64,000 nucleotides of DNA from Oceanospirillaceae bacterium (lineage in GTDB: Bacteria > Pseudomonadota > Gammaproteobacteria > Pseudomonadales > Oceanobacteraceae): positions 24,331 through 88,330 of the forward strand of contig PBNY01000069.1 of assembly GCA_002723385.1 (NCBI GenBank). The letters run 5' to 3'. Positions within the stretch are counted from its first letter, which is position 1. Every line of letters begins with the position of its first letter. Under the pieces are notes generated by a model. It did no database searches. It was not told where the DNA came from and saw only the letters and a program-made list of their open reading frames with translations. Both the position numbers and the translations under genes were made by a program. Below are positions 11,639 through 29,227 of this stretch, piece by piece.

Positions 11639-12139
11639 ATGAAAAAGAAAAATGTGGGTTCTGTCGCCCCTAAAGAACGCGTCAATATCTCCTATAAGCC
11701 GGCCGTCGGCGATGGGAAACAACAAATCGAACTGCCGTTCAAGGCCCTCATTCTTGGGGACTTTACACAACGGCCGGACGATCGGGTTATTGAAGAGCGA
11801 GAAGCGGTCAGTATTAACCGCAACAACTTCGACGAAGTACTCGCTTCCATGAATCTCGAAACTTCCTTTAGCGTCCCTAACCACCTCACCAGTGATGGGA
11901 AAAAAGAACTGGATATCCAGTTCAATCCCAAGTCCATGAAGGATTTTACGCCGGACAGCCTGGTCGAATCCGTTCCCGAATTGAAGAAAGTCATTGAATT
12001 GCGTAATGCCCTGAAAGCACTGAAAGGCCCATTGGGCAACGTGCCACAGATGCGTCGCAAGATTCAGAGTCTGGTTACCGATGAGTCGACTCGTCAGCGT
12101 CTGCTGGATGAACTCAATACTGATCCCAAAAAATCATAA
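11639..12139 (+). CDS. tssB: T6SS small sheath subunit TssB (VipA)
   Basis: KERVNISYKPAVGDGKQQIELPFKALILGDFTQRPDD is the TssB signature. I prefer the ATG at 11639 (GGGAAG 5 nt upstream) over the GTG at 11618. Confidence 0.9.
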   Translation: MKKKNVGSVAPKERVNISYKPAVGDGKQQIELPFKALILGDFTQRPDDRVIEEREAVSINRNNFDEVLASMNLETSFSVPNHLTSDGKKELDIQFNPKSMKDFTPDSLVESVPELKKVIELRNALKALKGPLGNVPQMRRKIQSLVTDESTRQRLLDELNTDPKKS

Positions 12140-12156: not shown

Positions 12157-13611
12157 ATGACAACCACAGCGGATTCTGTAAAAGAAGATTCCTTGATTGG
12201 TGAAGTGCTGAGCTTCACCCGTGTCCCTGTTCAGGACGAGAGCTACCCTGTTGTAAAACAGGGTGTTGAAATGCTGCTGCAAGAGCTGCTTGGCCGAGAT
12301 CAGGAAACCGTTCGAGTCGACAAGTCGTTCGTTGACCAGCTGATTGAAGAATTGGATGGCCGTTTGAGTGCCCAAATGGACGCCATTCTCCACAACGAAC
12401 AGTTCCAGGCTGTTGAACGCCCGTGGCGCAGCCTGAAGTTTCTGGTTGATCGCACGGATTTCTCTCAGAATATCAAGCTTGAGATACTCAATGCGAACAA
12501 GGAAGACCTGAGCGAAGACTTTGACGATGCCCCGGATATCACTCAAACCGGTCTGTATCGTCGCGTTTACACGGATGAATACGGTCAGTTTGGTGGCGAA
12601 CCCTATGGCGTGATTTTGGGTGACTATGAATTCAGTCATCATGCCAAGGACATCAGCCTGCTGCGCAACATGGGTTCTTTGTCTGCCATGACGCATGCGC
12701 CATTCATCGCGGCGGCCAGCTATCAGTTCTTCGGCATTGACGATATCTCTGAACTGCCTTCGTTGAAGGAAATGGAATCCATTTTCGAAGGTGCACAGTA
12801 CGCCAAGTGGCAATCTCTGCGTGAATCTGATGACTCCCGTAATATCGGACTGGTACTGCCAGAGTTCATGCTGCGTTCTACCTACGGTGATGATCTGTTG
12901 GTGCGTTCCTTCGAATATCAGGAAGCGGCATCATCCAAGCAGGATTATCTCTGGGGTAACGCTTCCTTTGCTTATGCCAGTCGTTTGGTCGACAGCTTTG
13001 CCCAGTTCCGCTGGTGTCCGAATATCATCGGACCTCAATCCGGTGGTGCGCTGGAAGATCTTCCCATTCACGTCGTGGATGTGGATGGTACCGAGCAGAT
13101 CAATGGCCCGGTTGAGATCGTTATTTCAGATCGCAAAGAATACGAACTGTCTGAACTTGGCTTTATTCCCCTGACCTTGCGCAAGGGGGGGGATCAGGCG
13201 GTGTTCTTCTCCTCCAACTCGGTTCAGAAAGCCATCAAGTTCGACAACACCGAAGAAGGCAAGATCGCAGAGATCAACTACAAGTTGGGCACCCAGCTGC
13301 CGTATCTGTTCATCGTCAGCCGCCTGGCTCACTACATCAAGGTTCTGCAACGAGAGAATCTTGGTAGCTGGAAAACCCGTGCAGATCTGGAAACCGAATT
13401 GAACAAATGGCTGCGTCGTTATGTCGCCGATCAGGAGAACCCGTCCCCGGCAACTCGCAGCTCTCGTCCTTTGAGAAAAGCCAATATCGTTGTGTCAGAG
13501 GTTGAGGGTGATGCTGGCTGGTACTCCGTATCCATGAGTGTGACGCCGCACTTCAAGTTTATGGGTGCCGATTTCACGCTTTCACTGAGCGGAATTCTTG
13601 AAAGGGGCTAA
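12157..13611 (+). CDS. tssC: T6SS large sheath subunit TssC (VipB)
   Basis: 484 aa. Motifs include HNEQFQAVERPWRSLKFLV and EYGQFGGEPYGVILGDYEF. The C-terminus QLPYLFIVSRLAHYIKVLQRENLGSW...VTPHFKFMGADFTLSL is typical of VipB. Confidence 0.95.
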   Translation: MTTTADSVKEDSLIGEVLSFTRVPVQDESYPVVKQGVEMLLQELLGRDQETVRVDKSFVDQLIEELDGRLSAQMDAILHNEQFQAVERPWRSLKFLVDRTDFSQNIKLEILNANKEDLSEDFDDAPDITQTGLYRRVYTDEYGQFGGEPYGVILGDYEFSHHAKDISLLRNMGSLSAMTHAPFIAAASYQFFGIDDISELPSLKEMESIFEGAQYAKWQSLRESDDSRNIGLVLPEFMLRSTYGDDLLVRSFEYQEAASSKQDYLWGNASFAYASRLVDSFAQFRWCPNIIGPQSGGALEDLPIHVVDVDGTEQINGPVEIVISDRKEYELSELGFIPLTLRKGGDQAVFFSSNSVQKAIKFDNTEEGKIAEINYKLGTQLPYLFIVSRLAHYIKVLQRENLGSWKTRADLETELNKWLRRYVADQENPSPATRSSRPLRKANIVVSEVEGDAGWYSVSMSVTPHFKFMGADFTLSLSGILERG

Positions 13612-13739: not shown

Positions 13740-14285
13740 ATGCCAAATGAAATTTTTGTCACCATTGAAGACTCTGAAGGCAACAATCTGAGTGAAGGCG
13801 CATCGTCAAAAGAAAGTATCGGTGCGTACTACAAGGAAGATCACGAAGACAAAATCTTTGTTCAGGCTCTGGAGCAGCGCAGTGTCCTTCCTACCGATCC
13901 TCGTAATGGTCAGGTAACAGGTGTTCGTCGCTACGAATATCTTGAGATTACCAAACTGATCGACAAGAGCAGCCCATTACTGGCGCAACTGTTGTCACAG
14001 CCAACCGATTTGACCATCCACGTTGAGTTCTACCGTTCACCGGATGAAACCAGCAGTGGTGAGCCGGTTCGCTACTACCAGATCAAAATGGCCGAAGCCA
14101 AGTTAATTACTCTGGAAACATTGTCTCCGGATGCAATGGATCCGTCTAACGACAATTTTATGGCATACGAGCGTTGTCGCTTCAGCTTCAACGCCGTGGC
14201 TTGGAAGCATGATGTCAGCGGCACTGAGGCGGTTGATACTGCTTCCAACGGTGAAAACGCCGAGAACGTCGCTTTCGAAGACTAG
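13740..14285 (+). CDS. hcp: T6SS tube protein Hcp (TssD), paralogue 1
   Basis: 181 aa with the Hcp core motif EITKLIDKSSPLLAQLL and the downstream YYQIKMAEAKLITLE. There is a strong RBS (AAGGAG) upstream. Confidence 0.85.
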   Translation: MPNEIFVTIEDSEGNNLSEGASSKESIGAYYKEDHEDKIFVQALEQRSVLPTDPRNGQVTGVRRYEYLEITKLIDKSSPLLAQLLSQPTDLTIHVEFYRSPDETSSGEPVRYYQIKMAEAKLITLETLSPDAMDPSNDNFMAYERCRFSFNAVAWKHDVSGTEAVDTASNGENAENVAFED

Positions 14286-14422: not shown

Positions 14423-15121
14423 ATGAATAGATGGATTGCGAGTGCGGGACTGATTGCCAGCATTCTGCTGACCCAGGCTTGTGCTGTGAAACCACCGGTT
14501 TGGAACGGCAGTATCGAAGACGAGCCGCCGTTGTCTCTGGATGATGCCAATCAGGCCGGGAACAACTGGGTCTGGCTGGACCAAACGTCAGATTGGTTCT
14601 ACCGCGATGGCGAACCGGTCAAACCGGACTACATGAACTGGGATTTTGAAGGCAAGGGCATTGCGTTTCGTTTTCTGGCGCCACAACAGTTGAATCTGCA
14701 CTCAGGCAGACCTCATACACTTTACCTGCGAGTTTTCCAGCTCTCTGATTTGAAAGTGTTTAACGACATGAAGAAGAGTCAGGCCGGTATTCGTGAGTTA
14801 CTGACCGCCACTGATATCGATCCAACGTTCCTCGCTACCAACGAATTTGTGATTTCGCCAGATGAAATGCTCAAAACGACGGTCGAGCGCATGAAGGATA
14901 CGCGGTTTGTCGCCATTGTGGCTGGCTACTATCAACTGGATCCGTCGGAAGTGGTCAAGGTTTTCCCCATTCCGGCAGTTGCCAACCGAACCGGCCATAC
15001 CGAGTGGACCGCACGATTGAATCCATTTGCAGATGATCCCCCGCCCGAGGCGGCACGAATCAAGGCCTGGGTAGATCTGGGGGTCACCAAGTTGTCTCGA
15101 CTGCAAATGCTTGCCGAATAA
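14423..15121 (+). CDS. tssJ: T6SS outer-membrane lipoprotein TssJ
   Basis: The signal peptide carries a lipobox (SILLTQAC). The TssJ-like block is HTLYLRVFQLSDLKVFNDM. Its position before tssK-tssL-tssM supports the call. At 232 aa it is longer than typical TssJ. Confidence 0.7.
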   Translation: MNRWIASAGLIASILLTQACAVKPPVWNGSIEDEPPLSLDDANQAGNNWVWLDQTSDWFYRDGEPVKPDYMNWDFEGKGIAFRFLAPQQLNLHSGRPHTLYLRVFQLSDLKVFNDMKKSQAGIRELLTATDIDPTFLATNEFVISPDEMLKTTVERMKDTRFVAIVAGYYQLDPSEVVKVFPIPAVANRTGHTEWTARLNPFADDPPPEAARIKAWVDLGVTKLSRLQMLAE

Positions 15122-15199: not shown

Positions 15200-16591
15200 G
15201 TGAATGTGAAGCAGCCGCTTTCCTGGTACCAGGGGTTATTTTTACAACCACAGCACTTTCAGTATTCCAGCCTCCACCAGGAGCAACTGGTGATCCAATA
15301 CATGCGAGAAGTGTGTCCATACCCTTGGGGTGTGGCACAGATGCAGTTGGATGATCAGGCTCTGGCTGGTGAAGTTGTCGAGCTGAGATACATCAAGGCT
15401 ATTTTTGAAGATGGTACGCTGGTTGAGTTTCCTGACAACGTCCACCTGACTGCCCGCAGCATTGAGGACAACTGGCACGATACGACTCAGCCTTTAAATG
15501 TGTATCTGGGGCTTGCCAAGCTTGACCCGGCTGCGTCGAACGTCACAGAAGTTCCTTCTCTGGCCAGTGCTGCTGCCATTCATTCCCGCTTCGTTGGTTT
15601 GAACGAAGGGGCTGAAATGAAAGATCTCAACGAAGGCAACACGACCAATCCGGTCAAGACCCTGCGCTACGCCCTGGGAATTTACTTTGAACCCGAGTTG
15701 GCTGATTTACACGATAAACAACTTTTGCCGTTGTTCGCTCTGGAAAAGCAGGGCGAGGACATTCAGGTCAGCCAGCAATTTATCCCACCGGTACTGACGT
15801 TGTCGGGCTCAAGCCTGCTGCTGTCAATCATCAAGAATATTCGTGATGAACTGGTGGGCAGAAGCAAACAGCTCGAAAACTACAAAAGCACGCCAACCTC
15901 TCGTGCGGCAGAATTTAACCCGGTTGCAGAACGTTACCGCGTTGCCTTGAGAATGCTGGCGCATTACACACCGTCACTGCAGCACTGGTATGAAAATCCT
16001 GCGGTTCATCCCGCTGATGTTTACAGCCACTTGCGAAGTCTGGTCGGTGAACTGAGTACTTTCTCTCATCGGGTTAACCTGCTTGGCGAAGCAACCGGTG
16101 ACGGCCCTTCTTTGCCTCGTTATCAACACAATGATCTGGCGATCAGTTTCAACACTGCGCGTGAGCTGATTGTGTCTTTGCTGGACGAGCTGACTGTTAG
16201 TCCTGAACTGCTGGTGCGCTTCAACCGCGACGACGCGAACCGATTCTCTGCAGAGTTGCCAGGTGAGTTCTTTGCCCGCCAGCACGACTTGTATCTGGTG
16301 TTGGAAACCGGTGCGACCTATGCCGATTGGGTTGAGTCATTCGAAGGTTTCGCCAAGCTGGGTGCCAGTGGTGAAATTGATATCTACAACCAGCGTGCAA
16401 TTCCGGGGATTCCTTTCCAGGCTTATCCGGATCAACCTTCCGGGTTGGAGCGCCGTCCAAAAGTCAGTTACTTCACATTAAATCGCGACAGCGACAAATG
16501 GAAAGTCGTTGAGAGTCAGGGGCAGATAACTCTGCTCTGGGACGATGCACCGGAAGATCTGGTTGTTGAAATGGTCATTGTGCGGGGATAG
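15200..16591 (+). CDS. tssK: T6SS baseplate subunit TssK
   Basis: 463 aa with a GTG start. The N-terminal PLSWYQGLFLQPQHFQ is the hallmark TssK motif. Confidence 0.85.
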   Translation: MNVKQPLSWYQGLFLQPQHFQYSSLHQEQLVIQYMREVCPYPWGVAQMQLDDQALAGEVVELRYIKAIFEDGTLVEFPDNVHLTARSIEDNWHDTTQPLNVYLGLAKLDPAASNVTEVPSLASAAAIHSRFVGLNEGAEMKDLNEGNTTNPVKTLRYALGIYFEPELADLHDKQLLPLFALEKQGEDIQVSQQFIPPVLTLSGSSLLLSIIKNIRDELVGRSKQLENYKSTPTSRAAEFNPVAERYRVALRMLAHYTPSLQHWYENPAVHPADVYSHLRSLVGELSTFSHRVNLLGEATGDGPSLPRYQHNDLAISFNTARELIVSLLDELTVSPELLVRFNRDDANRFSAELPGEFFARQHDLYLVLETGATYADWVESFEGFAKLGASGEIDIYNQRAIPGIPFQAYPDQPSGLERRPKVSYFTLNRDSDKWKVVESQGQITLLWDDAPEDLVVEMVIVRG

Positions 16592-16602: not shown

Positions 16603-17259
16603 ATGAGACTGATCGATTGTTTTGTTGAAAGTCTGGCTTTGACCGTGTCTCTGACTCGTGGCGAAGCCGGTGTGAGCGGTCGGGACTTCAACGATGTTCG
16701 CCAACATCTGAATGGCCAACTGGCGAACGTGTCGGGGCAAGGGGCGCAGGGCGGATACAGTGAACCACAGATTCGCCACGCTCTGTTTGCGGTGGTCGCC
16801 TTTATTGATGAGCAGCTGGCGAGTACGTCCTGGTCTGGTCAGCAAGAGTGGTCACGCAATCTGTTGCAGCGAGAGTATTTCGACACAACCAATGCCGGGG
16901 TCGAATTCTATTCACGTCTGGATACCCTGAATCCGTTTAACCCGGCAGAACGCGATATTCGCGAAGTCTATTACTACTGTCTGTCGTTGGGATTCTCCGG
17001 CAAGTTTTACGGAGAAGGCGCCCAGTCTGCATTGAACAAGATACGTCGGGATAACTATGACTTGCTGGCTGGTGACGATGACAGTTCAGCGTTGTTCCCT
17101 GATGGCTTTGGCCAGCAGAAGACAGAGAGCGCACTGAAAGCCAGGAGAGACTTGAGTGCCCTGTATTACGGCTTGCCTGTGCTGCTGATCGTTGCAGCGT
17201 TTTTTTACTTCCGAAAGGAAATGCTGGATCTGGCCAACTTTCTGGTGATCTCCGTCTAA
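16603..17259 (+). CDS. tssL: T6SS membrane-complex subunit TssL (DotU family), no peptidoglycan-binding extension
   Basis: 218 aa with DotU-like blocks ALFAVVAFIDEQL and YYYCLSLGFSGKFY. There is a single C-terminal TM (LPVLLIVAAFFYF), and the protein ends shortly after it. Confidence 0.8.
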   Translation: MRLIDCFVESLALTVSLTRGEAGVSGRDFNDVRQHLNGQLANVSGQGAQGGYSEPQIRHALFAVVAFIDEQLASTSWSGQQEWSRNLLQREYFDTTNAGVEFYSRLDTLNPFNPAERDIREVYYYCLSLGFSGKFYGEGAQSALNKIRRDNYDLLAGDDDSSALFPDGFGQQKTESALKARRDLSALYYGLPVLLIVAAFFYFRKEMLDLANFLVISV

Positions 17260-17285: not shown

Positions 17286-20200
17286 GTGAAAACATTTTTC
17301 AAAATTCTGTTATGGCTGCTGGTCTGGTCATTAATTGCTGCAGCCTGTGTGGGCGGAGCCCTGTTTACTGGCAATACGATTGAATTTGGTCTGAAAATTC
17401 TTGCCGGAATTTTCATTGCCTATATTTCCTTCCTGTTGATCCGCAAAGCCATTATTCATTACCGTGCCAAAAAGAAGGTTGAGTCACTGATCAATGTGGC
17501 TGAACCAGAGCAGAAAAAGCGCAAGCTGGAACTCTGGAAACAAAGCACCGGGCTGGACAAGAATTTCAAGGCGCTGGTGAAAATGCTCAACAGCAGCTAT
17601 CTCAAGGTGCATGGTGAGCCGTTGTATGTACTGCCCTGGTATCTCGTCATTGGCCACCAGCAGACTGGTAAAACCTTTGCACTTGATCAGGCTAACCTGC
17701 CCAAGCCAACCATCGAAAATGATGTACTGAGCCGGAAGGTAGGCAGCATCAATTGGCACTTATACAACCAGGCTATTGCGGTTGATACACCGGGAGAGTT
17801 CCTGGCCGATGTCGAAGGCTCACGTAACGAAGAGTGGCTGAAGCTGCTCTCCTTGCTCAAAAAGCACCGCAATAAGGAGCCGATCAATGGTGTCATCGTG
17901 ACATTACCCATGGATGTGTTGCTGGAAGGTAACAGCCAAAAGTTGATCGAAATGGGAACGCAGGCTCGCAAGAATCTGGAGCAGTTAATCCAGGTATTGC
18001 ATATTCAGGTGCCTATTTATCTGATGGTGACCAAACTGGATGCTCTGCCAGGGGTACCGGAATGGATAGGCACTCTGGATCAAGCCAGTTTCCGTGATCC
18101 AATGGGCAAGGTGAACCTGAAGGAGCAAGGCCCTGAAGAGTTCGTGCAGCAGACTGTAACGTCATTGGCCGAGCGCTTGAAGCAGTTGCAATTGACGGCC
18201 TTGCAGCAGGGGCAGGCTTCACCGGATTTGATCCGCCTGCCTACACGTTTCGAAGCACTTGAACGGCATCTGGTGACTTACGCCAACAGCATTTTCCAGC
18301 AGAATCCGTATCAAAAGACACCGTTATTCCGCGGCATGTACTTTGTCGGTGAAGCCGTAGGTGTTGAGCTTCAGACCGATTCCGAAGGACGTGGACTGTT
18401 TTCTCATCGTTTCCTCACCGACATTGTTCCAGCCGAGCGTGGGCTGATCTCTTCTCTGGCTCGATCCGAACGAGTCGAAAATACCCGTAAGCTCGGGCGC
18501 GTTGCGGCCTGGTATCTCGTATCTGCCGGGGTCTTCGCGGCTCTGTACAGCAGCTATCGGGGCAATCAGGGCATTCTCGAACAGATGACCGACCAAAACG
18601 CTGGCAATTTCGAAGAGTCCGTCGCGTTGGAGCAGAATATCAACACGCTGTACGACTATCGCTCGATGGTGAATCAGTTATCGGATAGCAGCTGGAGTCC
18701 GTGGTTTGGCGTGTCAGCTGACGAGCCAGCCTTTATCGGACAGTTGCAAGGGATCTTTGCAGAACGGGTTCAGTCGCGACTGGTGAGCAAGGCTGATCAG
18801 GTTTTCAGCTCTGCCATGACCAGTGCGTTGTACGCAGATAGTGATGTTTCTGAAGAGGAAATCGTTGCCTTCATTAGTACCCTGGTGCGCCGGATAAACA
18901 TTCTGGACGCCTACATGGATGGAGCCAGCGAAAGCAGCTTGAGTGATATGCCGCTGCCTTACAGTGAGAGCGATGCTGATTTGTTTGGTGTCCGTGATGT
19001 TGCCACCGTCGACAAACTCAATAATCTCTATCTGCAGTCCCTGTTCTGGACCGCTGATCAAGGTCTGCTGAAACAGGAACTGAAGCTTATGGAAGATCAG
19101 CTTCGAACCATCCTGATCAAAAGTAAGGCACTGGCCAACTGGTTGATTCCCTGGGCCAACGGGGTGGCGGAATCTGAAGAGCAGCGAGTATCCGATTTCT
19201 GGATTGCTGGCTCGGGGTCGATGAAAAAAGACGCTTTGATTTCCGGTGCCTTTACCCGCGAAGGCAAGCAAGCCATTGACAGCTTTATTGAGCAGATTCG
19301 TGAAACCCGCCGCTATGACGATATTCTGAATGAAATTCTGCCGGGTTTTCAGGCTTCGTATCAGAAGCAGTACCTGAAACAGTGGGAGAACTTCGCGCTT
19401 AACTTCTTCAGCGGCAGTCAGAAACTGCGTGGCCGGAATGAATGGCTGACTGTCGTCAATAACCTCTCCACCGGCCGCAATATCTTCTTTAACGCGCTGG
19501 ATCTGATTGATGAACAGATTGAGCCGTACAAGGATGCAGAGAACCTGCCTGATTGGGCCCAGATGGTCGCCTACTACCAGGATATGCGTGCCTTTGGCCC
19601 GGATGAAAAGACCGACAATGGCAAGCAGGACAAGGTACTGGCCAAAATGGCGATTCAGGTTGTGGGCAAAGCTGGCCCGGTGGGCAAGGCGCTCGCGGGT
19701 GGTGCCAAATCCGGTATGAAGAGCAAGAAGAAACTGGATAAGGCCGCAGGTAAGTCCGGTCCTTCTGCTGATGAACGCCAGATGCAGCTGGAACAGGCTG
19801 GCAAGTTGCTGGGTGAATACCGTCAGGCCCTCTCAAGTTTCGTCTACTCCGCCGAAACCCGCTCCGTATCCTACAGTGCGATTTCTGCCTTGTACTCCAA
19901 GCCAGACCAGCCGGATAGCGGTGAGAGCAGTTTGGCGTTGGGCTACAAATCCCTGAAGCAATTGCAGGCACTGGTTGGTAAAGAGAATCGTGAAAACCGG
20001 GCCTTCTGGTCGCTCTATAAAGGCGCTCTGAATCTGATGCGCGAATACATGATGGCCGAATCGGCTTGTGAAGTTCAGGAAAACTGGGAAAACAACTTCC
20101 TCGCCAATCTGGAAGGTGTGCCGGACTACAAACTGCCGGAGTTGGCGTTTGGAGACAGTGGTTTGCTGTGGACGACCTTGTCGACTGATATGGCGCCCTT

Positions 20201-20774
20201 CGTGAAAGAAAGAAGAGGTGCTGGTTATGTACCTCAGCGGGCTCTGGGGGAAACCTATCCTCTGTCTCGCCGCTTCCTTGAATTTGCGGCTCGTGCCAAG
20301 GATGCCAAACAAGCCAAGCAGGAAACCTACAAGGTTGATGTGCGTGGCATGCCGACCAGCACCAACCTGGACGCCAAGTACCATGTACGCCAAACCAAAC
20401 TGGAGTTGAGATGCGCTGAGCAGGTGGTCGAGCTGACCAACCTCAACTTCCCGGTTACGCGTAATTTTGCCTGGAATACCGCGTGTAGCGACGTGACTTT
20501 GAGCATTGAAGTGGGTCGCTTCACACTGGAAAAACGCTACGAAGGGCCGCTGGGCTTCCCATATTTCCTGAAAGAATTTGCGACTGGACAAAAACGCTTC
20601 ACACCATCGGACTTCCCTTCCAGAGCCGAGCAATTGAGAGAGTCGGGGGTCAGCTATATGGAAGTGGAATATCGTATTTCGGGTCAGGAAGCCTTGCTGT
20701 CTTCGCTGGACAATCGGGACTTGATTGTTCCCGACAAGGTGACGTCCTGCTGGCCTGCGGGCCGAGGCATCTGA
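17286..20774 (+). CDS. tssM: T6SS membrane-complex subunit TssM (IcmF family)
   Basis: 1162 aa with a GTG start, N-terminal TM helices and a Walker A (VIGHQQTGKTFAL). The long periplasmic C-terminal region and the position after tssL fit TssM. Confidence 0.9.
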   Translation: MKTFFKILLWLLVWSLIAAACVGGALFTGNTIEFGLKILAGIFIAYISFLLIRKAIIHYRAKKKVESLINVAEPEQKKRKLELWKQSTGLDKNFKALVKMLNSSYLKVHGEPLYVLPWYLVIGHQQTGKTFALDQANLPKPTIENDVLSRKVGSINWHLYNQAIAVDTPGEFLADVEGSRNEEWLKLLSLLKKHRNKEPINGVIVTLPMDVLLEGNSQKLIEMGTQARKNLEQLIQVLHIQVPIYLMVTKLDALPGVPEWIGTLDQASFRDPMGKVNLKEQGPEEFVQQTVTSLAERLKQLQLTALQQGQASPDLIRLPTRFEALERHLVTYANSIFQQNPYQKTPLFRGMYFVGEAVGVELQTDSEGRGLFSHRFLTDIVPAERGLISSLARSERVENTRKLGRVAAWYLVSAGVFAALYSSYRGNQGILEQMTDQNAGNFEESVALEQNINTLYDYRSMVNQLSDSSWSPWFGVSADEPAFIGQLQGIFAERVQSRLVSKADQVFSSAMTSALYADSDVSEEEIVAFISTLVRRINILDAYMDGASESSLSDMPLPYSESDADLFGVRDVATVDKLNNLYLQSLFWTADQGLLKQELKLMEDQLRTILIKSKALANWLIPWANGVAESEEQRVSDFWIAGSGSMKKDALISGAFTREGKQAIDSFIEQIRETRRYDDILNEILPGFQASYQKQYLKQWENFALNFFSGSQKLRGRNEWLTVVNNLSTGRNIFFNALDLIDEQIEPYKDAENLPDWAQMVAYYQDMRAFGPDEKTDNGKQDKVLAKMAIQVVGKAGPVGKALAGGAKSGMKSKKKLDKAAGKSGPSADERQMQLEQAGKLLGEYRQALSSFVYSAETRSVSYSAISALYSKPDQPDSGESSLALGYKSLKQLQALVGKENRENRAFWSLYKGALNLMREYMMAESACEVQENWENNFLANLEGVPDYKLPELAFGDSGLLWTTLSTDMAPFVKERRGAGYVPQRALGETYPLSRRFLEFAARAKDAKQAKQETYKVDVRGMPTSTNLDAKYHVRQTKLELRCAEQVVELTNLNFPVTRNFAWNTACSDVTLSIEVGRFTLEKRYEGPLGFPYFLKEFATGQKRFTPSDFPSRAEQLRESGVSYMEVEYRISGQEALLSSLDNRDLIVPDKVTSCWPAGRGI

Positions 20775-20784
20775 AGATGACGCT

Positions 20785-22509
20785 ATGATGCAAAATAACG
20801 GTGCTCATTTTTGGGATAAGTTCGACTTCAGTTATCAGGCGCAAGGCTCTGATACGGAGTTGCATTTACCGCTGAAACTACTGTTGCTTGGCGATTTTTC
20901 AGGCAGCAACGATTTTGAGCTTTCAACGTCGCCCATACCGGTTTCCATTGATGCAAGCAGTTTTGATCGTGTGCTGGCATCGCACGCTATTTCTCTGTCT
21001 TTGGAAGTTGCCCAGCCAGCAGACAATTCCGGTCTCAGCTTTGAGCTGATGGAAATCCCGCTGAATGGTCTGTCTGACTTCGAGCCAGCACAGCTGGTTC
21101 AGAATGTCCCTTATCTGAATTTGCATTTGTCGCTGATTCGAGAGCTACAGGCAGCAGATGATGCCGTGGAGTGCAGTGCGTTGTCCGATGCCGCTCGGCA
21201 GTTGCTGCAGCGATGCGGCGTTGATGTCGAGACCATCAGCCTGGTTGAACGCGATTTTATTTGTATGGACATCAATGAGCATTTGCATCAGATGCTGGAT
21301 GGCGTTTTGCAAGATGACCAGTTCCAGCACCTGGAGGCACTCTGGCGCAGCGTTTGGCAAGTGTGTCAGGTGGCCGATGCCTATGACGATTGTCATGTCG
21401 ATTTGCTGGATGTCAGCAAGGCGGCATTGAACGATGACTTTGTCGCCAACCGGGATGTGAGAGAAAGTCTGCTGTTTGACGTCGTCTATTTCAGCGAATT
21501 TGCCCAGTATGGTGGGCAGCCCTACGGCGCCATCGTAGCGGACTATGAATTTGGTCATGGCACGGAAGATGTGCAGCTCTTGCGTTCCATCGCCCAGGTT
21601 GGTTATGCCGCACACGTCCCCTTTATCTCGGGGGCCAGCCCACAGTTCTTTGGCCGTGAAGACTTCAGCGACATGGGTACCGGGTTGGATCTTCAGGAAC
21701 AGTTATCCGGGCCAAGGTATATCAAGTGGCGAAATCTGCTACAGGAGTCCTGGGCCAATTATCTGGCACTGGCTCTTCCGCGGATACTGGTTCGCCAACG
21801 TTATGACTACCCGGCGGGTCATATTGGACTATTGCCTTATCGCGAAGGTTCGTCACTGTCGTCTGGCAAAAGTCTGTTGGGCAATGCCGCATTTGGTTTC
21901 GCCCAATGCTTGTTGAACAGTTTTGGCGAGTTGGGGATTTGCACACGCATTGCCGGTGAGACGGGCGGTCAAACCGATACCCCTTTTTCCGAAGCGCCAT
22001 CTTACGGACGTTACCCGGTAGAGACGCGTTTCAGTGAACGCAAGATATCAGAGCTTGTACTGCAAGGTTTTTTACCTCTGACGGTGAACGCGGCTTCTGG
22101 CCAGTTGTACTTTCCGGTGGCCTATTCCCTCCGATGGGGTGGTCTGCATCAGCCTGGTTGGCAAATAAATGATTCCTTTTTTGATTCACAAGTCGAAGCC
22201 CAGCTGCCCTATTTGTTTGTAGTGGCGCGCATTGCTCACTATCTGAAAGTGGTTCAACGCGAATCACTCGGTAGTCTGCAAAGCACCAGCGAGCTGGAAA
22301 CCGAATTGAATCGCTGGCTGCGCCGTTACATCTCGGATGTGGATAACCCGGCCCCCGGAATTCGTATGCGCAAGCCTCTGCGTCAGGCGGAGCTGCGCGT
22401 GCTTGAAGATAGTGAGCGTGGTGGGCTGCACATGCAGCTGTCGGTGACCCCTCATATGAAGTTTCAGGGACAGGATTTCACCCTGGCACTCAATTTACTG
22501 GCTGAATAG
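20785..22509 (+). CDS. Natural TssB-TssC fusion (single-chain sheath-like paralogue)
   Basis: 574 aa. Residues ~11-125 align by eye with the cluster's own TssB: DKFDFSYQ..HLPLKLLLLGDFSG..VSIDASSFDRVLAS..DFEPAQLVQNVPYL against ERVNISYK..ELPFKALILGDFTQ..VSINRNNFDEVLAS..DFTPDSLVESVPEL. Residues ~155-574 align with TssC ~62-484: QDDQFQHLEALWRSV, EFAQYGGQPYGAIVADYEF, QLPYLFVVARIAHYLKVVQRESLGS, VTPHMKFQGQDFTLAL. Confidence 0.85.
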   Translation: MMQNNGAHFWDKFDFSYQAQGSDTELHLPLKLLLLGDFSGSNDFELSTSPIPVSIDASSFDRVLASHAISLSLEVAQPADNSGLSFELMEIPLNGLSDFEPAQLVQNVPYLNLHLSLIRELQAADDAVECSALSDAARQLLQRCGVDVETISLVERDFICMDINEHLHQMLDGVLQDDQFQHLEALWRSVWQVCQVADAYDDCHVDLLDVSKAALNDDFVANRDVRESLLFDVVYFSEFAQYGGQPYGAIVADYEFGHGTEDVQLLRSIAQVGYAAHVPFISGASPQFFGREDFSDMGTGLDLQEQLSGPRYIKWRNLLQESWANYLALALPRILVRQRYDYPAGHIGLLPYREGSSLSSGKSLLGNAAFGFAQCLLNSFGELGICTRIAGETGGQTDTPFSEAPSYGRYPVETRFSERKISELVLQGFLPLTVNAASGQLYFPVAYSLRWGGLHQPGWQINDSFFDSQVEAQLPYLFVVARIAHYLKVVQRESLGSLQSTSELETELNRWLRRYISDVDNPAPGIRMRKPLRQAELRVLEDSERGGLHMQLSVTPHMKFQGQDFTLALNLLAE

Positions 22510-22528
22510 CCGGTAGGAGAAGAATGAT

Positions 22529-23020
22529 ATGGCACTCGTGGGTTTCATGACGGTAACAGGCCGTGATCAGGGCAACATCGAGGGGAATGCGACTCAGGTC
22601 GACCACGAAGGTGAAATCGAGCTGTTGAAATTCGAGCATCTGTTAGAAGTGCCGGGAGTTGACGGTCAGGCCAGCCCGGGAGCACCGGTGCACGGGGCGA
22701 TTCAGATTAACAAGCTGATCGACAAGAGCAGTCCGAAGCTGATCCAGGCACTTGAGAAGCGGGAAGTACTGTCGGATGTCGTCATGACATGGTACCGCCC
22801 AGCGAGCGCAGGAATGGCCGAGCGTTGTTATCAGATTCAGCTTCAGAATGCCTTGATCACACGAATTCGGGGCTGGATGCCGCATATGTTGGACAGCACT
22901 CAGGATGAATATCGTCTGATGGAAGACATTTCGATCAGTTACGAAAAAATCCTCTGGAGCTGGGGAGAAGACGGCGAAGTGGAGTTTGAAGCCGAAGCTC
23001 GTGGCGCGGAGTCTGTCTGA
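22529..23020 (+). CDS. hcp: T6SS tube protein Hcp (TssD), paralogue 2
   Basis: 163 aa. The Hcp motif QINKLIDKSSPKLIQAL and CYQIQLQNALITRI are present. It is only distantly similar to Hcp1 outside these blocks. Confidence 0.85.
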   Translation: MALVGFMTVTGRDQGNIEGNATQVDHEGEIELLKFEHLLEVPGVDGQASPGAPVHGAIQINKLIDKSSPKLIQALEKREVLSDVVMTWYRPASAGMAERCYQIQLQNALITRIRGWMPHMLDSTQDEYRLMEDISISYEKILWSWGEDGEVEFEAEARGAESV

Positions 23021-23448
23021 TGACGTCTCGAATGCTGGAGCGACTCGCCACTCTCGATCTGTCGGATGATCAGATACGGGTCTGGCATCAACAGGATCAG
23101 GCGCTGATGTCGATCAGAAATCACCTGAGTTCGTTACTGAACACTCGAGCGGGTAGCGTACCAATTGATCCCGAATATGGCGTGCCGGATATGTCGGTTG
23201 GTCCAGGTAGCAGTGAGTTTCCGAATGCAGATGTGATGGCTCAGGCGCTGTTGGCTGTGGTGGCCAGATACGAGCAGCGTTTGAACAAGCCGCGGCTACA
23301 GATAGTGTTGAGCCATGCCGATAACATTTCGACCCGGTTAATTCTGGATGGTGAGATTGAAGATGGTGGTGCCATGCGAGCAATCAGCTTGCAGGCCACC
23401 ATTGGGGGCGATGGTGTGGTTGAATTTGATCCGATTGAGCAGGGCTGA
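23020..23448 (+). CDS. tssE: T6SS baseplate subunit TssE (gp25-like)
   Basis: 142 aa. SIRNHLSSLLNTRAGSVPIDPEYGVPDMS matches the TssE/GPW_gp25 signature. Its ATG overlaps the hcp2 TGA by 1 nt. Confidence 0.8.
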   Translation: MTSRMLERLATLDLSDDQIRVWHQQDQALMSIRNHLSSLLNTRAGSVPIDPEYGVPDMSVGPGSSEFPNADVMAQALLAVVARYEQRLNKPRLQIVLSHADNISTRLILDGEIEDGGAMRAISLQATIGGDGVVEFDPIEQG

Positions 23449-23450: not shown

Positions 23451-25175
23451 GTGTTAACTGATTACTACAAACAAGAACTGCGCCGGCTGAAAGAAATAGC
23501 GGCTGACTTTTCTCGCGGTAATCCGGGATTGAGTCGGGCTTTGTCCGGAGAAAGCGCCGACCCCGATGTGGCCCGAGTATTGGAAGGGGTTGCATTTCTG
23601 TCTGCCAACATCCGTCAGGAGCTGGATCAGCAATTCCCCCGTTTGCTGCACAGTCTGGCCCAGATCGTGTGTCCCCAGTACATTCGACCGTTGCCATCCA
23701 CGACTATCATGGCTTTCGAACCGAAAGGTAGCCTTAATCAGTCCTTGACTGTCGAGGCTGGTACCTACATCGATTCCAGACCCGATAAATACGGCAGTTG
23801 CCGTTTCCGAACGACGGAAGAGCTGACCATCCTGCCGATGCAATTAAGTCGGGTGGTGACACTGGAAGAAACCCTGGTTCCCGAACTGGCATTTGAGTTG
23901 CGGTTTGAGCTGGTGGGACAAACCCTTGACCAGTTACCGTTTGACAAGTTGCGCCTGTATATCGGTGGTGAGTTTTCGGATGCCTGCGATCTTTACTATC
24001 TGATTCGTCATCAGCTCAAGGCTTTGATGCTGGTCGCGAACGGAGAAATTTCTTTACCCGTCGGCTCTGTACAGGGAACCGGTTTTGCCCCGGATCAAAG
24101 TCTGTTTGGCCAGCCTCTGGGGCTGATGCCCGCCTTCGATTTGTTGCAACAGTATTTTCTCAGTCCGCAGAAGTTCTTGTTTATTGATATTGACCTGACT
24201 TCCTGGCGCCACCGCGGAGCCGGGAATCAGTTCGCATTGAGATTCCAGTGCAACAAGCCCAATTTCAGTGTACCAACCCTGACACAAGAGCATTTTATTT
24301 TGCACGCAGTGCCCGCCATCAATCTGTTTGAGCACAAGGCACAGTCGGTGTTGCTTGATCCCTTACAGGAGAGTTTTCAGCTCTTGCCTGCTGTCAGTGC
24401 CTACGCACAGAACTCGGTCATTTACTCCGTTGAGGGCGTCGAAAGTGTTGCGCGTGGCATGGATACCCCGAGGGAATATCAGTCATTCGGTGGATTTGGG
24501 GAATCGGATGACCGTGCGGTCTATGAAACGCTTTACCTGAATGGACAAGATCCCAATAACCCGGATCTGTATTTGAAGTTGGCGTTCCCGGCTTCACAGA
24601 CCCTGGAAGACAAGGAAATTCTCAAGGCCGAGCTGCTCTGTACCAATGGTGATAAAGCAGAAACCCTGCTTCCGGGAGACATTTGTATAGCAACCAGCTC
24701 AACGCCGGAATTGGCAACGTTCCAGAATATTACCAAGCCCACCTCTGCACGCCGCGTACCTCTGGATGGTGATCAACTTTGGCAGCTGGTATCGCATTTG
24801 TCGCTCAACTATCTGTCCATTACGAACGCAGAAACCCTCAAGGGAATGCTCGGGCTGTACGTTGCGCCAGACAACAAGGAGAAAAGTGAGCGCCTTGCCA
24901 ATACCAAGAAAATTGATTCCATTACCGATGTCAGTGTTAGTCAGAGTGAAGCTTTGTTTGGCAACGCTTTTGTGCACGGCCAACACGTTCAGGTTCAGCT
25001 GAAGTCCGAATACTTCTCCAGTGCTGGTGACAAGTATCTGTTTGGCTGCGTGCTGGAGCAGTTCTTTGCCGGAACGGCCGCCATCAATGTGTATTCGGAA
25101 CTGACCTTTGAAGACCATAACAGTGGAGAGCGCCTGCAATGGCCAGCGCGGATAGGCAACCGACCACTGCAGTAG
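23451..25175 (+). CDS. tssF: T6SS baseplate subunit TssF
   Basis: 574 aa with a GTG start. The N-terminal YYKQELRRLKEIAADFSRGNPGLSRAL is typical of TssF. Confidence 0.9.
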   Translation: MLTDYYKQELRRLKEIAADFSRGNPGLSRALSGESADPDVARVLEGVAFLSANIRQELDQQFPRLLHSLAQIVCPQYIRPLPSTTIMAFEPKGSLNQSLTVEAGTYIDSRPDKYGSCRFRTTEELTILPMQLSRVVTLEETLVPELAFELRFELVGQTLDQLPFDKLRLYIGGEFSDACDLYYLIRHQLKALMLVANGEISLPVGSVQGTGFAPDQSLFGQPLGLMPAFDLLQQYFLSPQKFLFIDIDLTSWRHRGAGNQFALRFQCNKPNFSVPTLTQEHFILHAVPAINLFEHKAQSVLLDPLQESFQLLPAVSAYAQNSVIYSVEGVESVARGMDTPREYQSFGGFGESDDRAVYETLYLNGQDPNNPDLYLKLAFPASQTLEDKEILKAELLCTNGDKAETLLPGDICIATSSTPELATFQNITKPTSARRVPLDGDQLWQLVSHLSLNYLSITNAETLKGMLGLYVAPDNKEKSERLANTKKIDSITDVSVSQSEALFGNAFVHGQHVQVQLKSEYFSSAGDKYLFGCVLEQFFAGTAAINVYSELTFEDHNSGERLQWPARIGNRPLQ

Positions 25176-26131
25176 AACGACAGCTGCTGGATGATGCGTC
25201 CTTATGGCCGTTCAGTCGGGTATTGGGTGCACTGACCGCTATTGTAAAAGCCCGGGGTGGTGATCCCGAGCAGTTGATTCGTATTCGACCGAAACTGTCG
25301 TTGCATCAGCACCGTTCGGAAGTGGTGAGCGTTCGGCATCGAGACGGCGAATACTATGAGATCGAGGTGAATTTCCTCGGCTTGTACGGCAGTTCTTCAC
25401 CATTACCGACCTTCTACACCGAAGAACTGTTGCAACTGGAACAAGAAGATCAGGTTTCGGCCCGGCTGTTTCTGGATGTGATTCATCAGCGTCTCTATCA
25501 GCTGTTCGCTTCCAGTCAGCAGAAATACGACAATCTTCGTGCTGCCGTTGAATGGCACCAGAACCAGTTCAGCCAACTGCTGCACAGTTTGATCGGAACG
25601 CGAGACAGGGAACTGCAGCAACAATTGCCAGATGAATCCCTGCTGCTGAAATACTTTGGTTTGCTGGCACTGCCTCAACGTTCTGCTCAAGGGCTGGAAT
25701 CACTGCTGGCTGATCTTCTATCGGGCGTTCAGGTAGAGGTTGAGCAATGCGTTGCTCGCAAGGTCAAAGTGCCTGCTCGACATTTGAGCAGCCTGGGTAT
25801 GGCTTCCTGTACTCTGGGTAACAACGCGCTGGTGGGTGATCAGCTTACTGATCGGAAAAGCAAGATTCGAATACACATTGGGCCGATTGAAGCCGACACT
25901 TTTCATCAGATGGTAGCGGATGAGACGCGTTGGCGACAACTTACCGGCTTCATTCGCTTTTATCTGAACACGCCTATGGAAGTTGAGCTGCGTGTCATCC
26001 TGAATCCGCAAGGAGCACAAAAAATGGAGTTGGGACGAGCTCGAGGTTCTCAGCTCGGCGTTGATACCTGGTTGAACAAACCGGTATCAGATGGCAACGA
26101 TGTATTGGTTAGCACATTACATGTTGGCTAG
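25139..26131 (+). CDS. tssG: T6SS baseplate subunit TssG
   Basis: 330 aa following tssF with a 37-nt overlap, so the start is uncertain. Length, position and the conserved FYTEELL/LxxYF-type blocks fit TssG. Confidence 0.8.
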   Translation: MASADRQPTTAVERQLLDDASLWPFSRVLGALTAIVKARGGDPEQLIRIRPKLSLHQHRSEVVSVRHRDGEYYEIEVNFLGLYGSSSPLPTFYTEELLQLEQEDQVSARLFLDVIHQRLYQLFASSQQKYDNLRAAVEWHQNQFSQLLHSLIGTRDRELQQQLPDESLLLKYFGLLALPQRSAQGLESLLADLLSGVQVEVEQCVARKVKVPARHLSSLGMASCTLGNNALVGDQLTDRKSKIRIHIGPIEADTFHQMVADETRWRQLTGFIRFYLNTPMEVELRVILNPQGAQKMELGRARGSQLGVDTWLNKPVSDGNDVLVSTLHVG

Positions 26132-26236: not shown

Positions 26237-29227
26237 ATGAGCGAACAGATAGCATTTACCTTCGCTTTGGCGGGTGCCCAAAAAGACGAAGTGTTTCAGG
26301 TTTTGACGTTCACGGGTGATGAAGGTATCTCACGCCTGTACGAATTCAATATTGAGTTGTTGTCAGATAACCCGGATGCCGATATTGATGCCATTCTGCA
26401 GCAACCAGCCACACTGACCCTGACTCAGGGAGACGATGTTCGTGTGATCCAGGGCATCGTTTCGCATTTTGACGCTGTGCGTCAAATCAACAATCAGGTG
26501 CTTTACAAGGCTCGCCTGGTACCCCGTTTGTGGGAGCTGTCGCTCTACCATACCAATGAAGTCTACCTGGAGATGACGGTTCCGGAGATCATCGAGGCGG
26601 TACTGACGGAGGGCGGTTTTGAAAGCGTCGATTACGACCTTTCCGATCTTCAGAGTGACTACAAAAAATGGGCGTACAAATGCCAGTACGGTGAAACGCA
26701 CCTGGACTTTATCTCGCGTTTGATGGAACGCGATGGCATCTACTACTACTTCACTCGTGGCGAAGTGGGCGAAAAAGTTGTCTTCTGTGATCAGCTCACC
26801 ATGCAGGAATCATTACCCAATGCAGTGGTGCAATACAGTGCGGCATCGTCGCTGGAAATTAACGCCCTGCCAAACACCGTTCATAGCTTTGTCAGTCAGC
26901 AAAAGCGCCTGCCCTACCGCGTGATGCTGAAGGACTACAACGATGACAAACCATCGGTTGACGTCAAGGGTGAAGCCATCATCGACGACAGCGCCAACAA
27001 GAGCAGTGAGATTTACGTTTGGGGCCAGAATATTGAAACCCCGGAAGAAGGCGAACAACTGGCGCTAATCCGGGCAGAACAGATTCGCGCTGGCAAGAAA
27101 CTGTTCCATGGCGAAAGCTCGGTTAACCGACTGATCCCCGGTTACTTCTTTACTCTTCAAGGGCATTTCCGCGGTGCCTGCAATCAGGATTACTGTCTGC
27201 TTGGATTGCATCATGAAGGCACCGACCGGCGTCTGATTGACGGCGGTAACAGCAGCCAGGCGCTGGCCTACCGAAATGAACTCAGTGCCCAGCCAGCTGA
27301 CGTGCAATATCGCCCAGCCCTTGAGACCCCGCGCCCGGAAATTCACGGTGTATTGAATGCCTACGTCGATTCCGAAGGTGACGGCCACTATGCAGAAATC
27401 GATGAAGAAGGGCGCTACCGAATCCTGCTGCCATTTGACCGTGTTGATCGCGACGGCGGCAAGGCATCACATTGGATTCGGATGAGCCAGCCATTCGCGG
27501 GAGAAAATCAGGGGATGCATTTTCCCTTGCGTAAGGGCACAGAAGTGTTACTTACCTTTGTGGGAGGAGATCCAGATCGTCCGGTGATCGCCGGTTCCAT
27601 GCCAAACGCCGGAGCACCGAGCGTTATCAATGCCGAAAACCATACCAACAGTTTGATTCAGACCAAGGCCGGTAACCGCATTGAGTTGGAAGACAAGGAC
27701 GGTAAGAACCGGATCAAGTTTGAGACTCCTCAAAACGGCACTTATATGCACTTGGGGGCGCCTAACCATGCGGGTGATGGTTGGGTGGTCGTCACCGACG
27801 GTATCGAGCGTAAAGCGATTTCTGGCGGGCAGCAATATACCGTCGTAACCAACAATACAACGGATAAGGATAATAGCCGGGTTGATTTTGGAATTAGTGG
27901 CAAGACAGGAATGGAATCGACAAATACCAAGGCATCTCCTACTGGAACGGTCAATGATGATCCGGTCAACCTTTTTCCCTTCACTACTCGTATTGACGAC
28001 CTGCCCAATATGGGTGCTCTTTCTGCAACCGATATTAGTAAACTGAACGAGTTGGGTAAGCTGAAAACCATATCTTCCTCATCAGGGGCTGGTAATTCTG
28101 GTACAACAACACAAAATGGAGAAACCACAACCTGGGCTACCGGCCCAAGCTTGAGTGCAAGGACCTTATTATCCTACGAAGATGAAATCAGTGGAGATTA
28201 TATAGTCAGTCGTAAAAAGGGGGTGCGTTATGTTTGGGAAGATGGTATTGAATTTAATTATGGACAAGGCTTTGTTTATACGTTTGGCAACTCTCATGAG
28301 GTGACAGTCTGGAATCGGCAAGATACGGGTGCCGGTGCAAAACTTGTTCAGGATATGTTTTCTCGTAACGTTCAGGGGTTAAAGGCGTTTGGAGGAAATC
28401 CGGCGACAACGAACTGGAAAGAAATGATATCAAAAGGAGAATTTGTTGTTAAACAAACCGATACCTTTACGGCTCAGAATGGCAATATTTATGACTTTGG
28501 CGGCTATTGGAACTATAATCTGGGAAACTCTTACGAAGAAAATCATATCGAACAGAATACATCTATAAATCGATCTGATCTTAAAGAAGACAAAGCTTCT
28601 CCAGGTGGACCTGATTGGACATCTTTGACAGGAAAAGATATTGGAAGTATGACGGCTGGAAAAACGTGGGTGACCAAATCTATTGGAAATACCTACGAAT
28701 ATCAGTTGGGAGATACCCTGGAAGTGGTCGTTGGGGACATCGAAATTCAGCACTATGGAAAAAGTTATGGATACTTTGAATCGTACTTTAAAGAGGAGTT
28801 TAGGGGGCGATCGGAATCTTATTTCTATGGAGCTGCTAGTGAAATATTCATTGGTGCATCGAATGATTTGCGTGTTGGCGCAGCTAGTGAAATGAAGCTT
28901 ATAGGTGGTAATAACGTGAATCTCGGAGTTTGGACCGATATAAATATAGGGCTTGCCTTGAATATTAGTAAGGGGTGGACAATCACTTTTGATACTGCAG
29001 GGGAACTAAGGAAAAGCGTTATGACTATGGATAAAGTTGAGACGAAACTCAAGAAAATTAGTGCCGAGTTAGCTAATTCAGACATGAAGATACGTTCGGC
29101 GAAGGCCAAAATCGACGACTTTAAGTCTCAAATAGAGAATGGCAAGGCGTTAGTTGGAAAGTACAAGTTTAAGGTCGAGAAAGACGGAATTGTAGCCATT
29201 AACGCAAAACTCATGAATGTTTCTTGA
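26237..29227 (+). CDS. vgrG: T6SS spike protein VgrG (TssI) with a ~450-500-aa C-terminal extension
   Basis: 996 aa. gp27/gp5 motifs are ISRLYEFNIELLSD, DFISRLMERDGIYYYF and HWIRMSQPFAGENQGMHFPLRKGTEVLLTFVGGDPDRPVIAGSMPN. An extension follows that ends in a Lys-rich coiled coil (KVETKLKKISAELANSDMKIRSAKAKIDDFKSQIENGK). Confidence 0.9.
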   Translation: MSEQIAFTFALAGAQKDEVFQVLTFTGDEGISRLYEFNIELLSDNPDADIDAILQQPATLTLTQGDDVRVIQGIVSHFDAVRQINNQVLYKARLVPRLWELSLYHTNEVYLEMTVPEIIEAVLTEGGFESVDYDLSDLQSDYKKWAYKCQYGETHLDFISRLMERDGIYYYFTRGEVGEKVVFCDQLTMQESLPNAVVQYSAASSLEINALPNTVHSFVSQQKRLPYRVMLKDYNDDKPSVDVKGEAIIDDSANKSSEIYVWGQNIETPEEGEQLALIRAEQIRAGKKLFHGESSVNRLIPGYFFTLQGHFRGACNQDYCLLGLHHEGTDRRLIDGGNSSQALAYRNELSAQPADVQYRPALETPRPEIHGVLNAYVDSEGDGHYAEIDEEGRYRILLPFDRVDRDGGKASHWIRMSQPFAGENQGMHFPLRKGTEVLLTFVGGDPDRPVIAGSMPNAGAPSVINAENHTNSLIQTKAGNRIELEDKDGKNRIKFETPQNGTYMHLGAPNHAGDGWVVVTDGIERKAISGGQQYTVVTNNTTDKDNSRVDFGISGKTGMESTNTKASPTGTVNDDPVNLFPFTTRIDDLPNMGALSATDISKLNELGKLKTISSSSGAGNSGTTTQNGETTTWATGPSLSARTLLSYEDEISGDYIVSRKKGVRYVWEDGIEFNYGQGFVYTFGNSHEVTVWNRQDTGAGAKLVQDMFSRNVQGLKAFGGNPATTNWKEMISKGEFVVKQTDTFTAQNGNIYDFGGYWNYNLGNSYEENHIEQNTSINRSDLKEDKASPGGPDWTSLTGKDIGSMTAGKTWVTKSIGNTYEYQLGDTLEVVVGDIEIQHYGKSYGYFESYFKEEFRGRSESYFYGAASEIFIGASNDLRVGAASEMKLIGGNNVNLGVWTDINIGLALNISKGWTITFDTAGELRKSVMTMDKVETKLKKISAELANSDMKIRSAKAKIDDFKSQIENGKALVGKYKFKVEKDGIVAINAKLMNVS

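Follow-up and report, generated by a model that had tools for sequence, protein, structure and literature searches.

Type VI secretion system (T6SS) sheaths are taught as strict heterodimers of TssB and TssC, and both the start of their polymerization on the baseplate and the contribution of TssA to this step are still debated. [quoted passage not shown] A protein combining both sheath subunits, TssCL, has been described bioinformatically in roseobacters; it comprises 1,684 amino acids with two VipA domains and one VipB domain, belongs to alphaproteobacterial clusters of the H1-like kind, in which tssB and tssC are retained as well, and is reported absent outside the Alphaproteobacteria (Suria et al. 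2022, Front Microbiol, PMC9515649). In the Photorhabdus virulence cassette (PVC), an extracellular contractile injection system (eCIS), Pvc4, which initiates the sheath, touches both the gp25-like adaptor Pvc9 and Pvc5, a tube ring that makes up the second tube layer; the bulk subunits Pvc2/3 and Pvc1 come next (PMC12546770). Here we describe a compact TssB-TssC fusion, designated TssBC*, from a T6SS locus of an Oceanospirillaceae bacterium. The stretch of DNA analyzed, referred to as the window, comprises 64,000 nt (contig PBNY01000069.1, positions 24,331-88,330) and carries the fusion together with a second hcp gene, hcp2, at 20785-23020. TssBC* and Hcp2 form a fixed accessory module of a type i T6SS (T6SS-i) subtype found mostly in marine Gammaproteobacteria.

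TssBC* is encoded by the open reading frame (ORF) at 20785-22509 (+), which starts with ATG and runs as a single uninterrupted frame of 574 codons to yield a protein of 574 amino acids. An initial annotation of this DNA, made from the sequence by eye, had proposed a natural single-chain TssB-TssC paralogue, and this was borne out by Pfam, which placed three domains on the one polypeptide: T6SS_VipA (PF05591) at residues 15-125 (E 5.6e-14, 52.7 bits against a cut-off of 24, covering profile positions 13-124 of 155), VipB (PF05943) at residues 161-448 (E 7e-74, 249 bits against 27) and VipB_2 (PF18945) at residues 467-569 (E 4e-30, 104.7 bits against 27). All three matches exceed their gathering cut-offs. 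The fusion also passed the NCBIfam TssC equivalog (323.7 bits, cut-off 271.5) and did not reach that of TssB (49.4 bits, cut-off 97.25) because it matches only the first three quarters of the latter profile (positions 16-127 of 160). By BLASTP, residues 11-123 align with residues 20-134 of the TssB encoded in the same locus (30% identity, E 1e-12), and residues 140-574 with residues 40-482 of its TssC (37% identity, E 4e-91); TssB/VipA chains in the PDB align to residues 18-123 and VipB to residues 153-569.

These alignments, and those with relatives, also upheld the proposal that the TssB tail and the ClpV-recognized helix of TssC are absent: the fusion lacks some 40 residues at the C-terminal end of TssB and the initial 40-60 of TssC. 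The TssB-like part retains the N-terminal handshake strand, the core and the first C-terminal helix, and the TssC core retains domains 1 and 2 plus the gp25-like C-terminal handshake domain. The linker that stands in for the TssB tail and TssC residues ~1-40/60 was initially called unrelated. In the window, however, its second half (LLQRCGVDVETISLVERDF) aligns with residues 40-58 of the locus's own TssC; across the wider family the linker differs in both length and sequence. T6SS sheaths are recognized as heterodimers of two polypeptides, and TssBC* and its orthologues each unite both parts in one chain. TssBC* is a genuine, selectively maintained fusion of TssB (residues ~1-125) with TssC (from residue ~55-60 to the end).

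A structural comparison envisaged in the initial annotation returned a sheath protomer fold with both handshake strands retained. The AlphaFold2 model, built on 24 orthologues, had a predicted local distance difference test score (pLDDT) of 82 and a predicted template modeling score (pTM) of 0.86. Foldseek matched it to the TssC/VipB chains of solved sheaths with target-normalized TM-scores of 0.77-0.85 and, more weakly, to TssB/VipA chains with TM-scores of 0.5-0.6; as modeled, the fusion folds like a VipA/VipB protomer. The alignment of the 24 orthologues has 36 invariant columns, and conservation extends to both handshake strands, N-terminal (WDKFxFSYQ...LPFKLLVLGDFS) as well as C-terminal (DFxLxL). 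In the window, the C-terminal strands of the fusion (DFTLALNLLAE) and of the partner TssC (DFTLSLSGILE) are nearly identical, and the C-terminal 30 residues of the two proteins share 50% identity compared to 37% overall. TssBC* has the fold of a sheath subunit and possesses the two donor strands together with the acceptor domain. A shorter N-terminal linker was considered as a family trait that might lock the ring, and was dropped since basal fusions have a linker of canonical length.

The helix at the TssC N terminus is missing from every fusion aligned and is kept by the partner TssC in loci with and without clpV alike; in the window its motif reads SLIGEVLSFTRV (compare ATDDCLEEIINNTRA in EAEC TssC2). 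Because this helix is missing, ClpV would not recognize TssBC*. Domain 3, to which the missing termini contribute, is reduced in the fusion.

It was conceivable that the fusion is an artefact or a decaying relic, produced by mis-assembly or a frameshift or left over from merged clusters. The two-block layout of the locus could stem from a merger, and end-to-end TssB-TssC fusions of 620-690 amino acids, which may include artefacts, occur in metagenomes mostly as singletons. Against this, 5 contigs of independent origin (in NCBI, ENA and Logan, under the name of an Oceanospirillaceae metagenome-assembled genome, MAG) carry the identical TssBC* protein, and orthologues at 29-85% identity, such as those of Oceanobacter mangrovi and Psychrosphaera, have the three domains in a single frame. 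A profile search of 1.84 billion representatives yielded dozens of proteins of 540-610 amino acids that span the whole profile in one stretch, and a second search seeded with a distant member added ~95 further clusters at 90% identity. The compact architecture recurs with the same deletion boundaries in well over 100 sequence clusters, down to ~30% identity, and its gene holds an invariant position in the loci inspected. Together with the 36 invariant columns, these findings exclude mis-assembly, frameshift and pseudogene, and we give an artefact or relic next to no weight. A relic of two merged modules, as suggested initially, may describe how the fusion arose, but it does not describe the present state of a gene that is intact and conserved in well over 100 clusters.

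In a scan of genome contigs with the fusion alignment, the search patterns also matched ordinary adjacent tssB and tssC genes; among the matches listed, the true compact fusions were those of loci L007, L008, L023 and L055. Public annotation labels all kinds of fusion "contractile sheath large subunit". In L007 (Psychrosphaera algicola, 5768-15341), tssL, tssM, the fusion, tssF and tssG are each broken over several frames, and this is either a decaying locus or a poor, indel-rich assembly; the locus of a sister Psychrosphaera, L002, is intact. The metagenomic set P0119-P0240, which holds the mostly singleton end-to-end fusions, also includes giant proteins of 800-2151 amino acids with one or two TssB/TssC sets. 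The long fusions may contain frameshift or gene-calling artefacts, and two of them, P0120 (a Nannocystaceae MAG, 3 contigs) and P0119, recur.

The T6SS genes of the window run on the plus strand in the order tssB, tssC, hcp1, tssJ, tssK, tssL, tssM, fusion, hcp2, tssE, tssF, tssG, vgrG. Pfam and BLASTP agreed with the initial annotation that a split TssB/TssC pair with Hcp1 coexists with the fusion and a second Hcp; Hcp2 is 29% identical to Hcp1. The fusion stop codon is separated by 19 nt from the start of hcp2, whose stop codon is overlapped by the start of tssE by 1 nt. Besides the window, 11 distinct loci were inspected, some with flanks partly out of view. Wherever the flanks were visible, the fusion lay between tssM and a second hcp adjoining tssE-F-G (11 of 11 distinct loci), and every locus with a visible downstream flank showed fusion-hcp2 adjacency with tight or overlapping junctions.

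These loci differ in their content of tssA and clpV. Both genes are present in L090 (same place as L087), L091 and L092, in the order tssA-tssB-tssC-clpV-hcp1-tssJKLM-fusion(-hcp2-tssE); L089 (Saccharospirillum) and L008 (an Ectothiorhodospiraceae MAG) have tssA and no clpV; L023, L055 and L088 have clpV, the position of tssA being out of view; and the window, L001, L002/L003, L007 and L004 have neither. The complete order of the subtype is tssA-tssB-tssC-clpV-hcp1-tssJ-K-L-M-tssBC*-hcp2-tssE-F-G-vgrG, with all 13 core genes. Wherever tssA is present it precedes tssB, so the fusion does not occupy the place where tssA normally sits, as had been supposed initially. A complete T6SS-i core set, with TssA and ClpV in the locus, is found in L090, L091 and L092 and not in the window. 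Pfam searches of the long ORFs of the 64-kb window, all but a few short ones at its 3' end, returned no TssA (ImpA_N) or ClpV/TssH, and tblastn with the TssA and ClpV of relatives (E<=1) returned no remnants of either gene in the window and its closest relatives.

The initial annotation had offered compensation for the missing TssA and ClpV as the reason for the fusion. In support, the window, L001, L002, L004 and L007 lack both genes and any remnants with every other core gene intact, and in this clade TssBC* and Hcp2 stand further apart from their partner proteins, so that a function may have been gained after the loss. However, the same fusion occurs in the same slot together with tssA and clpV in L090, L091 and L092, the very co-occurrence by which the proposal was to fail, and L089 and L008 combine it with tssA only, L023, L055 and L088 with clpV. 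Moreover, the absences refer to the locus or window, and the genomes may hold copies of tssA or clpV elsewhere. We regard it as very unlikely that the fusion exists to replace TssA and ClpV. As only the window's clade lacks both genes, their loss in the lineage of the window is secondary, and since relatives have the fusion in the same slot with tssA and/or clpV, the fusion predates the losses. Identity to the partner protein in the clade without both genes is 36-37% for TssBC* and 24-31% for Hcp2, compared to 45-54% and 44-45%, respectively, in loci with tssA and clpV. This stronger divergence may reflect a role that eased the loss or followed it.

Among the functions that had been considered, a specialized (priming or initiator) sheath subunit is the most plausible. 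By analogy with Pvc4/Pvc5, we tentatively propose, at somewhat less than even confidence, that TssBC* forms a low-copy, ClpV-insensitive first sheath ring around a ring of Hcp2. In this model one Hcp2 ring, or a few, would be seated on VgrG; a TssBC* ring would wrap Hcp2 and dock on TssE through the retained handshake strands; and this TssBC*/Hcp2 seed would provide the starting point for the abundant polymer of TssB/TssC and Hcp1. Lacking the TssC N-terminal helix, the TssBC* ring would not be recognized by ClpV and could survive the recycling of the sheath. Seed rings kept on the baseplate might in turn make TssA priming and ClpV recycling dispensable, both having been lost in the Oceanospirillaceae/Psychrosphaera clade, but this extension we consider rather doubtful.

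Evolutionary rates and proxies for expression bear on the copy number implied by an initiator ring. Mean pairwise distances over 8 loci were 0.53 for TssC, 0.68 for TssB, 1.19 for TssBC*, 1.13 for TssK, 1.16 for TssL and 1.21 for TssM; relative to canonical TssC, TssBC* evolves at ~2.2 times the rate, which is also about that of TssK, TssL and TssM. Codon bias in four loci tends to be slightly stronger in tssC and hcp1 than in tssBC* and hcp2, a weak signal (hcp1 exceeds tssBC* in 3 of 4).

The same rates and codon usage speak to a second explanation, that TssBC* builds a complete, full-length second tail around an Hcp2 tube on the same baseplate and membrane complex, which might deliver different cargo or serve as a non-recyclable single shot. 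TssBC* keeps every element of a polymerizing sheath, including both handshake strands; profiles identify Hcp2 as an ordinary Hcp, and across the family its evolution is as slow as that of Hcp1; and the tssBC*-hcp2-tssE-F-G-vgrG block echoes the classical tssB-tssC-hcp-tssE-F-G arrangement of locus L093. A rate ~2.2 times that of TssC would not, however, be expected where two polymer states constrain the subunit; the codon bias falls below that of tssC and hcp1; and where clpV is present, there would be no recycling of a full sheath that has no ClpV handle. We therefore consider a second tail improbable, at about one half the weight given to the initiator ring.

Several observations weigh against the initiator ring itself. 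To our knowledge, characterized T6SSs have no such ring, since Hcp stacks straight onto VgrG and the sheath is built on TssE; initiator rings are known to us only from extracellular injection systems and phages, and we know of no T6SS shown to have them. With all elements of a polymerizing subunit, TssBC* could form long sheaths. Hcp2 is as slow as Hcp1 over the wider family (0.91 versus 0.95), and the rate argument is therefore limited to the sheath. Co-evolution was assessed by partial correlation of pairwise distances with a permutation test, which did not separate the TssBC*-Hcp2 and TssBC*-Hcp1 pairings: the partial correlations of TssBC* with Hcp2 and Hcp1 were 0.61 and 0.64 over 11 loci, and 0.49 and 0.14 over 8 loci only. 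Shine-Dalgarno strengths and energies and promoter and terminator scans gave no contrast in expression.

The near-identity of the C-terminal strand to that of the partner TssC is compatible with contacts in a mixed polymer, and TssBC* could alternatively be a minor co-polymer, distal cap or stabilizer, placed sparsely in the canonical sheath or at its growing or distal end. It would there regulate length, stability or ClpV-driven disassembly, and Hcp2 would terminate or mark the tube. The missing ClpV helix fits such a role, as does the coexistence of the module with TssA, which acts at the distal end. On the other hand, a subunit that has an acceptor sheet as well as both donor strands would not stay at an end of its own accord; the linkage of the gene is to tssE-F-G and not to tssA or tail-end genes; and no terminator-like feature was found. 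This explanation appears to us as unlikely as a second tail, and the initiator ring stays the reading we lean toward.

The history of the fusion was examined with a neighbor-joining tree of TssC cores that included 73 compact fusions. The clade that contains the window protein has 48 members, almost all of them compact fusions, the fusions of the L023 type form a separate clade of 11, and the partner TssCs form their own clade within the canonical TssCs; bootstrap values of the deep nodes were 7-46%. Judged from these sequences, a single origin of all compact fusions is likely. The fusion is an old paralogue and no recent copy of its neighbor. The fusion-hcp2-tssE-F-G-vgrG block mirrors the tssB-tssC-hcp(-hcp)-tssE-F-G-clpV-vgrG order of L093, and an ancient duplication or merger of two clusters, followed by fusion, is a plausible origin. 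L093 (8040-9383) is a classical locus with two tandem hcp genes directly 5' of tssE; a second Hcp beside tssE is therefore not limited to fusion-bearing loci. Among unfused relatives, the TssC of L093 belongs to those nearest the fusion.

The features of the T6SS locus in the window are listed in Table 1. The GTG start listed for tssB is possibly a few codons too far upstream. In the PDB, V. cholerae VipB matches the canonical TssC with 615 bits, and this TssC retains an N-terminal helix like that bound by ClpV. In the 1162-residue TssM, only the N-terminal IcmF-related_N domain was recognized; the C-terminal ~700 residues are without a profile match here and in all related loci, and the periplasmic part of the membrane complex is divergent in this subtype.

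Table 1. Features of the T6SS locus in the window, with positions counted from its first nucleotide.
Feature	Position	Strand	Evidence
tssB, canonical small sheath subunit	11618..12139	+	Pfam T6SS_VipA E 1.3e-51, full profile; NCBIfam TssB 170.8 bits, above cut-off
tssC, canonical large sheath subunit	12157..13611	+	Pfam VipB E 8e-119, VipB_2 E 2e-42
hcp1, tube protein beside canonical sheath genes	13740..14285	+	Pfam T6SS_HCP; NCBIfam TssD 129 bits
tssJ	14423..15121	+	Pfam T6SS-SciN
tssK	15200..16591	+	Pfam T6SS_VasE E 3.7e-92
tssL	16603..17259	+	Pfam DotU
tssM	17286..20774	+	Pfam IcmF-related_N; NCBIfam VI_IcmF 213 bits, under cut-off 388
Fusion, TssB-like part, residues 1-125	20785..21159	+	Pfam VipA; BLASTP with own TssB; PDB chains
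Fusion, linker, residues ~126-152	21160..21240	+	Alignments; AlphaFold2 short helix at 135-143
Fusion, TssC core, residues ~153-574, and stop codon	21241..22509	+	Pfam VipB/VipB_2; PDB; Foldseek
hcp2, divergent second tube protein	22529..23020	+	Pfam T6SS_HCP E 9e-26; NCBIfam 131.8 bits
tssE, gp25-like sheath adaptor	23020..23448	+	Pfam GPW_gp25
tssF	23451..25175	+	Pfam T6SS_TssF E 1.8e-128
tssG	25139..26131	+	Pfam T6SS_TssG
vgrG	26237..29227	+	Pfam Phage_GPD, Phage_base_V
Spike accessory, DUF2169 and pentapeptide	29235-32186	+	Pfam
Spike accessory, pentapeptide	32174-33250	+	Pfam
Spike accessory, DUF3540	33172-33903	+	Pfam
Spike accessory, PAAR-like	33910-34320	+	Pfam

After vgrG follow genes for DUF2169-pentapeptide, pentapeptide, DUF3540 and PAAR-like proteins (29235-34320), a set that we take to be equivalent to Burkholderia TagAB/TagB/TagC and that is kept in relatives L001, L002, L087 and L088. 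DUF3540, needed for sheath assembly, and the PAAR-like TagD are among the T6SS accessory factors covered in a review (PMC13584744). G+C content falls from ~52% to 43% across 28000-32000 of the window, over the C-terminal part of VgrG and the DUF2169/pentapeptide gene, which suggests that the spike-tip/adaptor module was recently exchanged. Just downstream of the T6SS locus, at 37259-49907, a protein of 3421 amino acids that has at least 12 Big_2 repeats precedes an ORF of 318 amino acids of unknown function and a tetratricopeptide repeat (TPR)/SlipAM-like outer-membrane protein, and the whole looks like the export unit of a giant adhesin. In the relatives L090, L091 and L092, by contrast, a ShlB/POTRA pair for two-partner secretion lies upstream of tssA.

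Taken together, an accessory module of a conserved single-chain sheath paralogue and Hcp2, fixed within the baseplate operon, defines a widespread marine T6SS subtype. Its locus exists in three versions, which have both tssA and clpV, tssA without clpV, or neither gene; they amount to a natural experiment, and their comparison could reveal the minimal needs for starting, stabilizing and recycling a T6SS tail. If the initiator ring proves true, T6SS assembly would stand closer to that of eCIS and phage tails. Structural and engineering work may also profit from a naturally fused protomer that lacks domain 3.

TssBC* shares its Pfam domains, fold and handshake strands with the canonical TssB/TssC sheath (VipA/VipB of V. 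cholerae; PDB 3J9G and 5MXN) and differs from it in being a single chain with reduced domain 3 that evolves ~2 times faster and is present in addition to the normal pair. Another set of proteins, P0067-P0093 (~490-630 amino acids), likewise joins VipA and VipB in one chain and is encoded by an extra gene in T6SS loci with tssB and tssC. These proteins lack the VipB_2 handshake domain, are 23-29% identical to the window protein and constitute a separate family; their genes stand last in canonical loci with tssA, tssB, tssC and clpV, after clpV or PAAR, as in L005 (10001-11587) and L006 (10001-11812), which encode P0078 and P0085. They may be another specialized sheath-like accessory, possibly a cap because the C-terminal handshake is lacking.

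The initial annotation knew of no characterized natural TssBC fusion. This is nearly right: no description of a compact TssBC fusion was found in the full-text literature, and the only related case found, roseobacter TssCL, has been described though not functionally characterized (PMC9515649). As with TssCL, VipA and VipB are combined in a T6SS cluster that has separate tssB and tssC genes (here at 11618-12139 and 12157-13611). In contrast to TssCL, the window protein has 574 amino acids with one VipA, VipB and VipB_2 each, comes from the Gammaproteobacteria, and is encoded together with a second Hcp in a slot that is always tssM-[fusion]-hcp2-tssE where its flanks are visible.

Kinship to eCIS sheath proteins is not close at the sequence level, and the AFP (antifeeding prophage) baseplate sheath chain 6rao_D was matched by Foldseek with E 4e-4 and TM-scores of 0.32-0.49. 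The likeness to Pvc4/Afp4 and Pvc5/Afp5 lies in organization: in both cases, a sheath paralogue and a tube paralogue distinct from the bulk subunits are encoded together. Pvc4 and Pvc5 touch the gp25-like Pvc9/Afp9, and TssBC* and Hcp2 are encoded directly before the gp25-like tssE.

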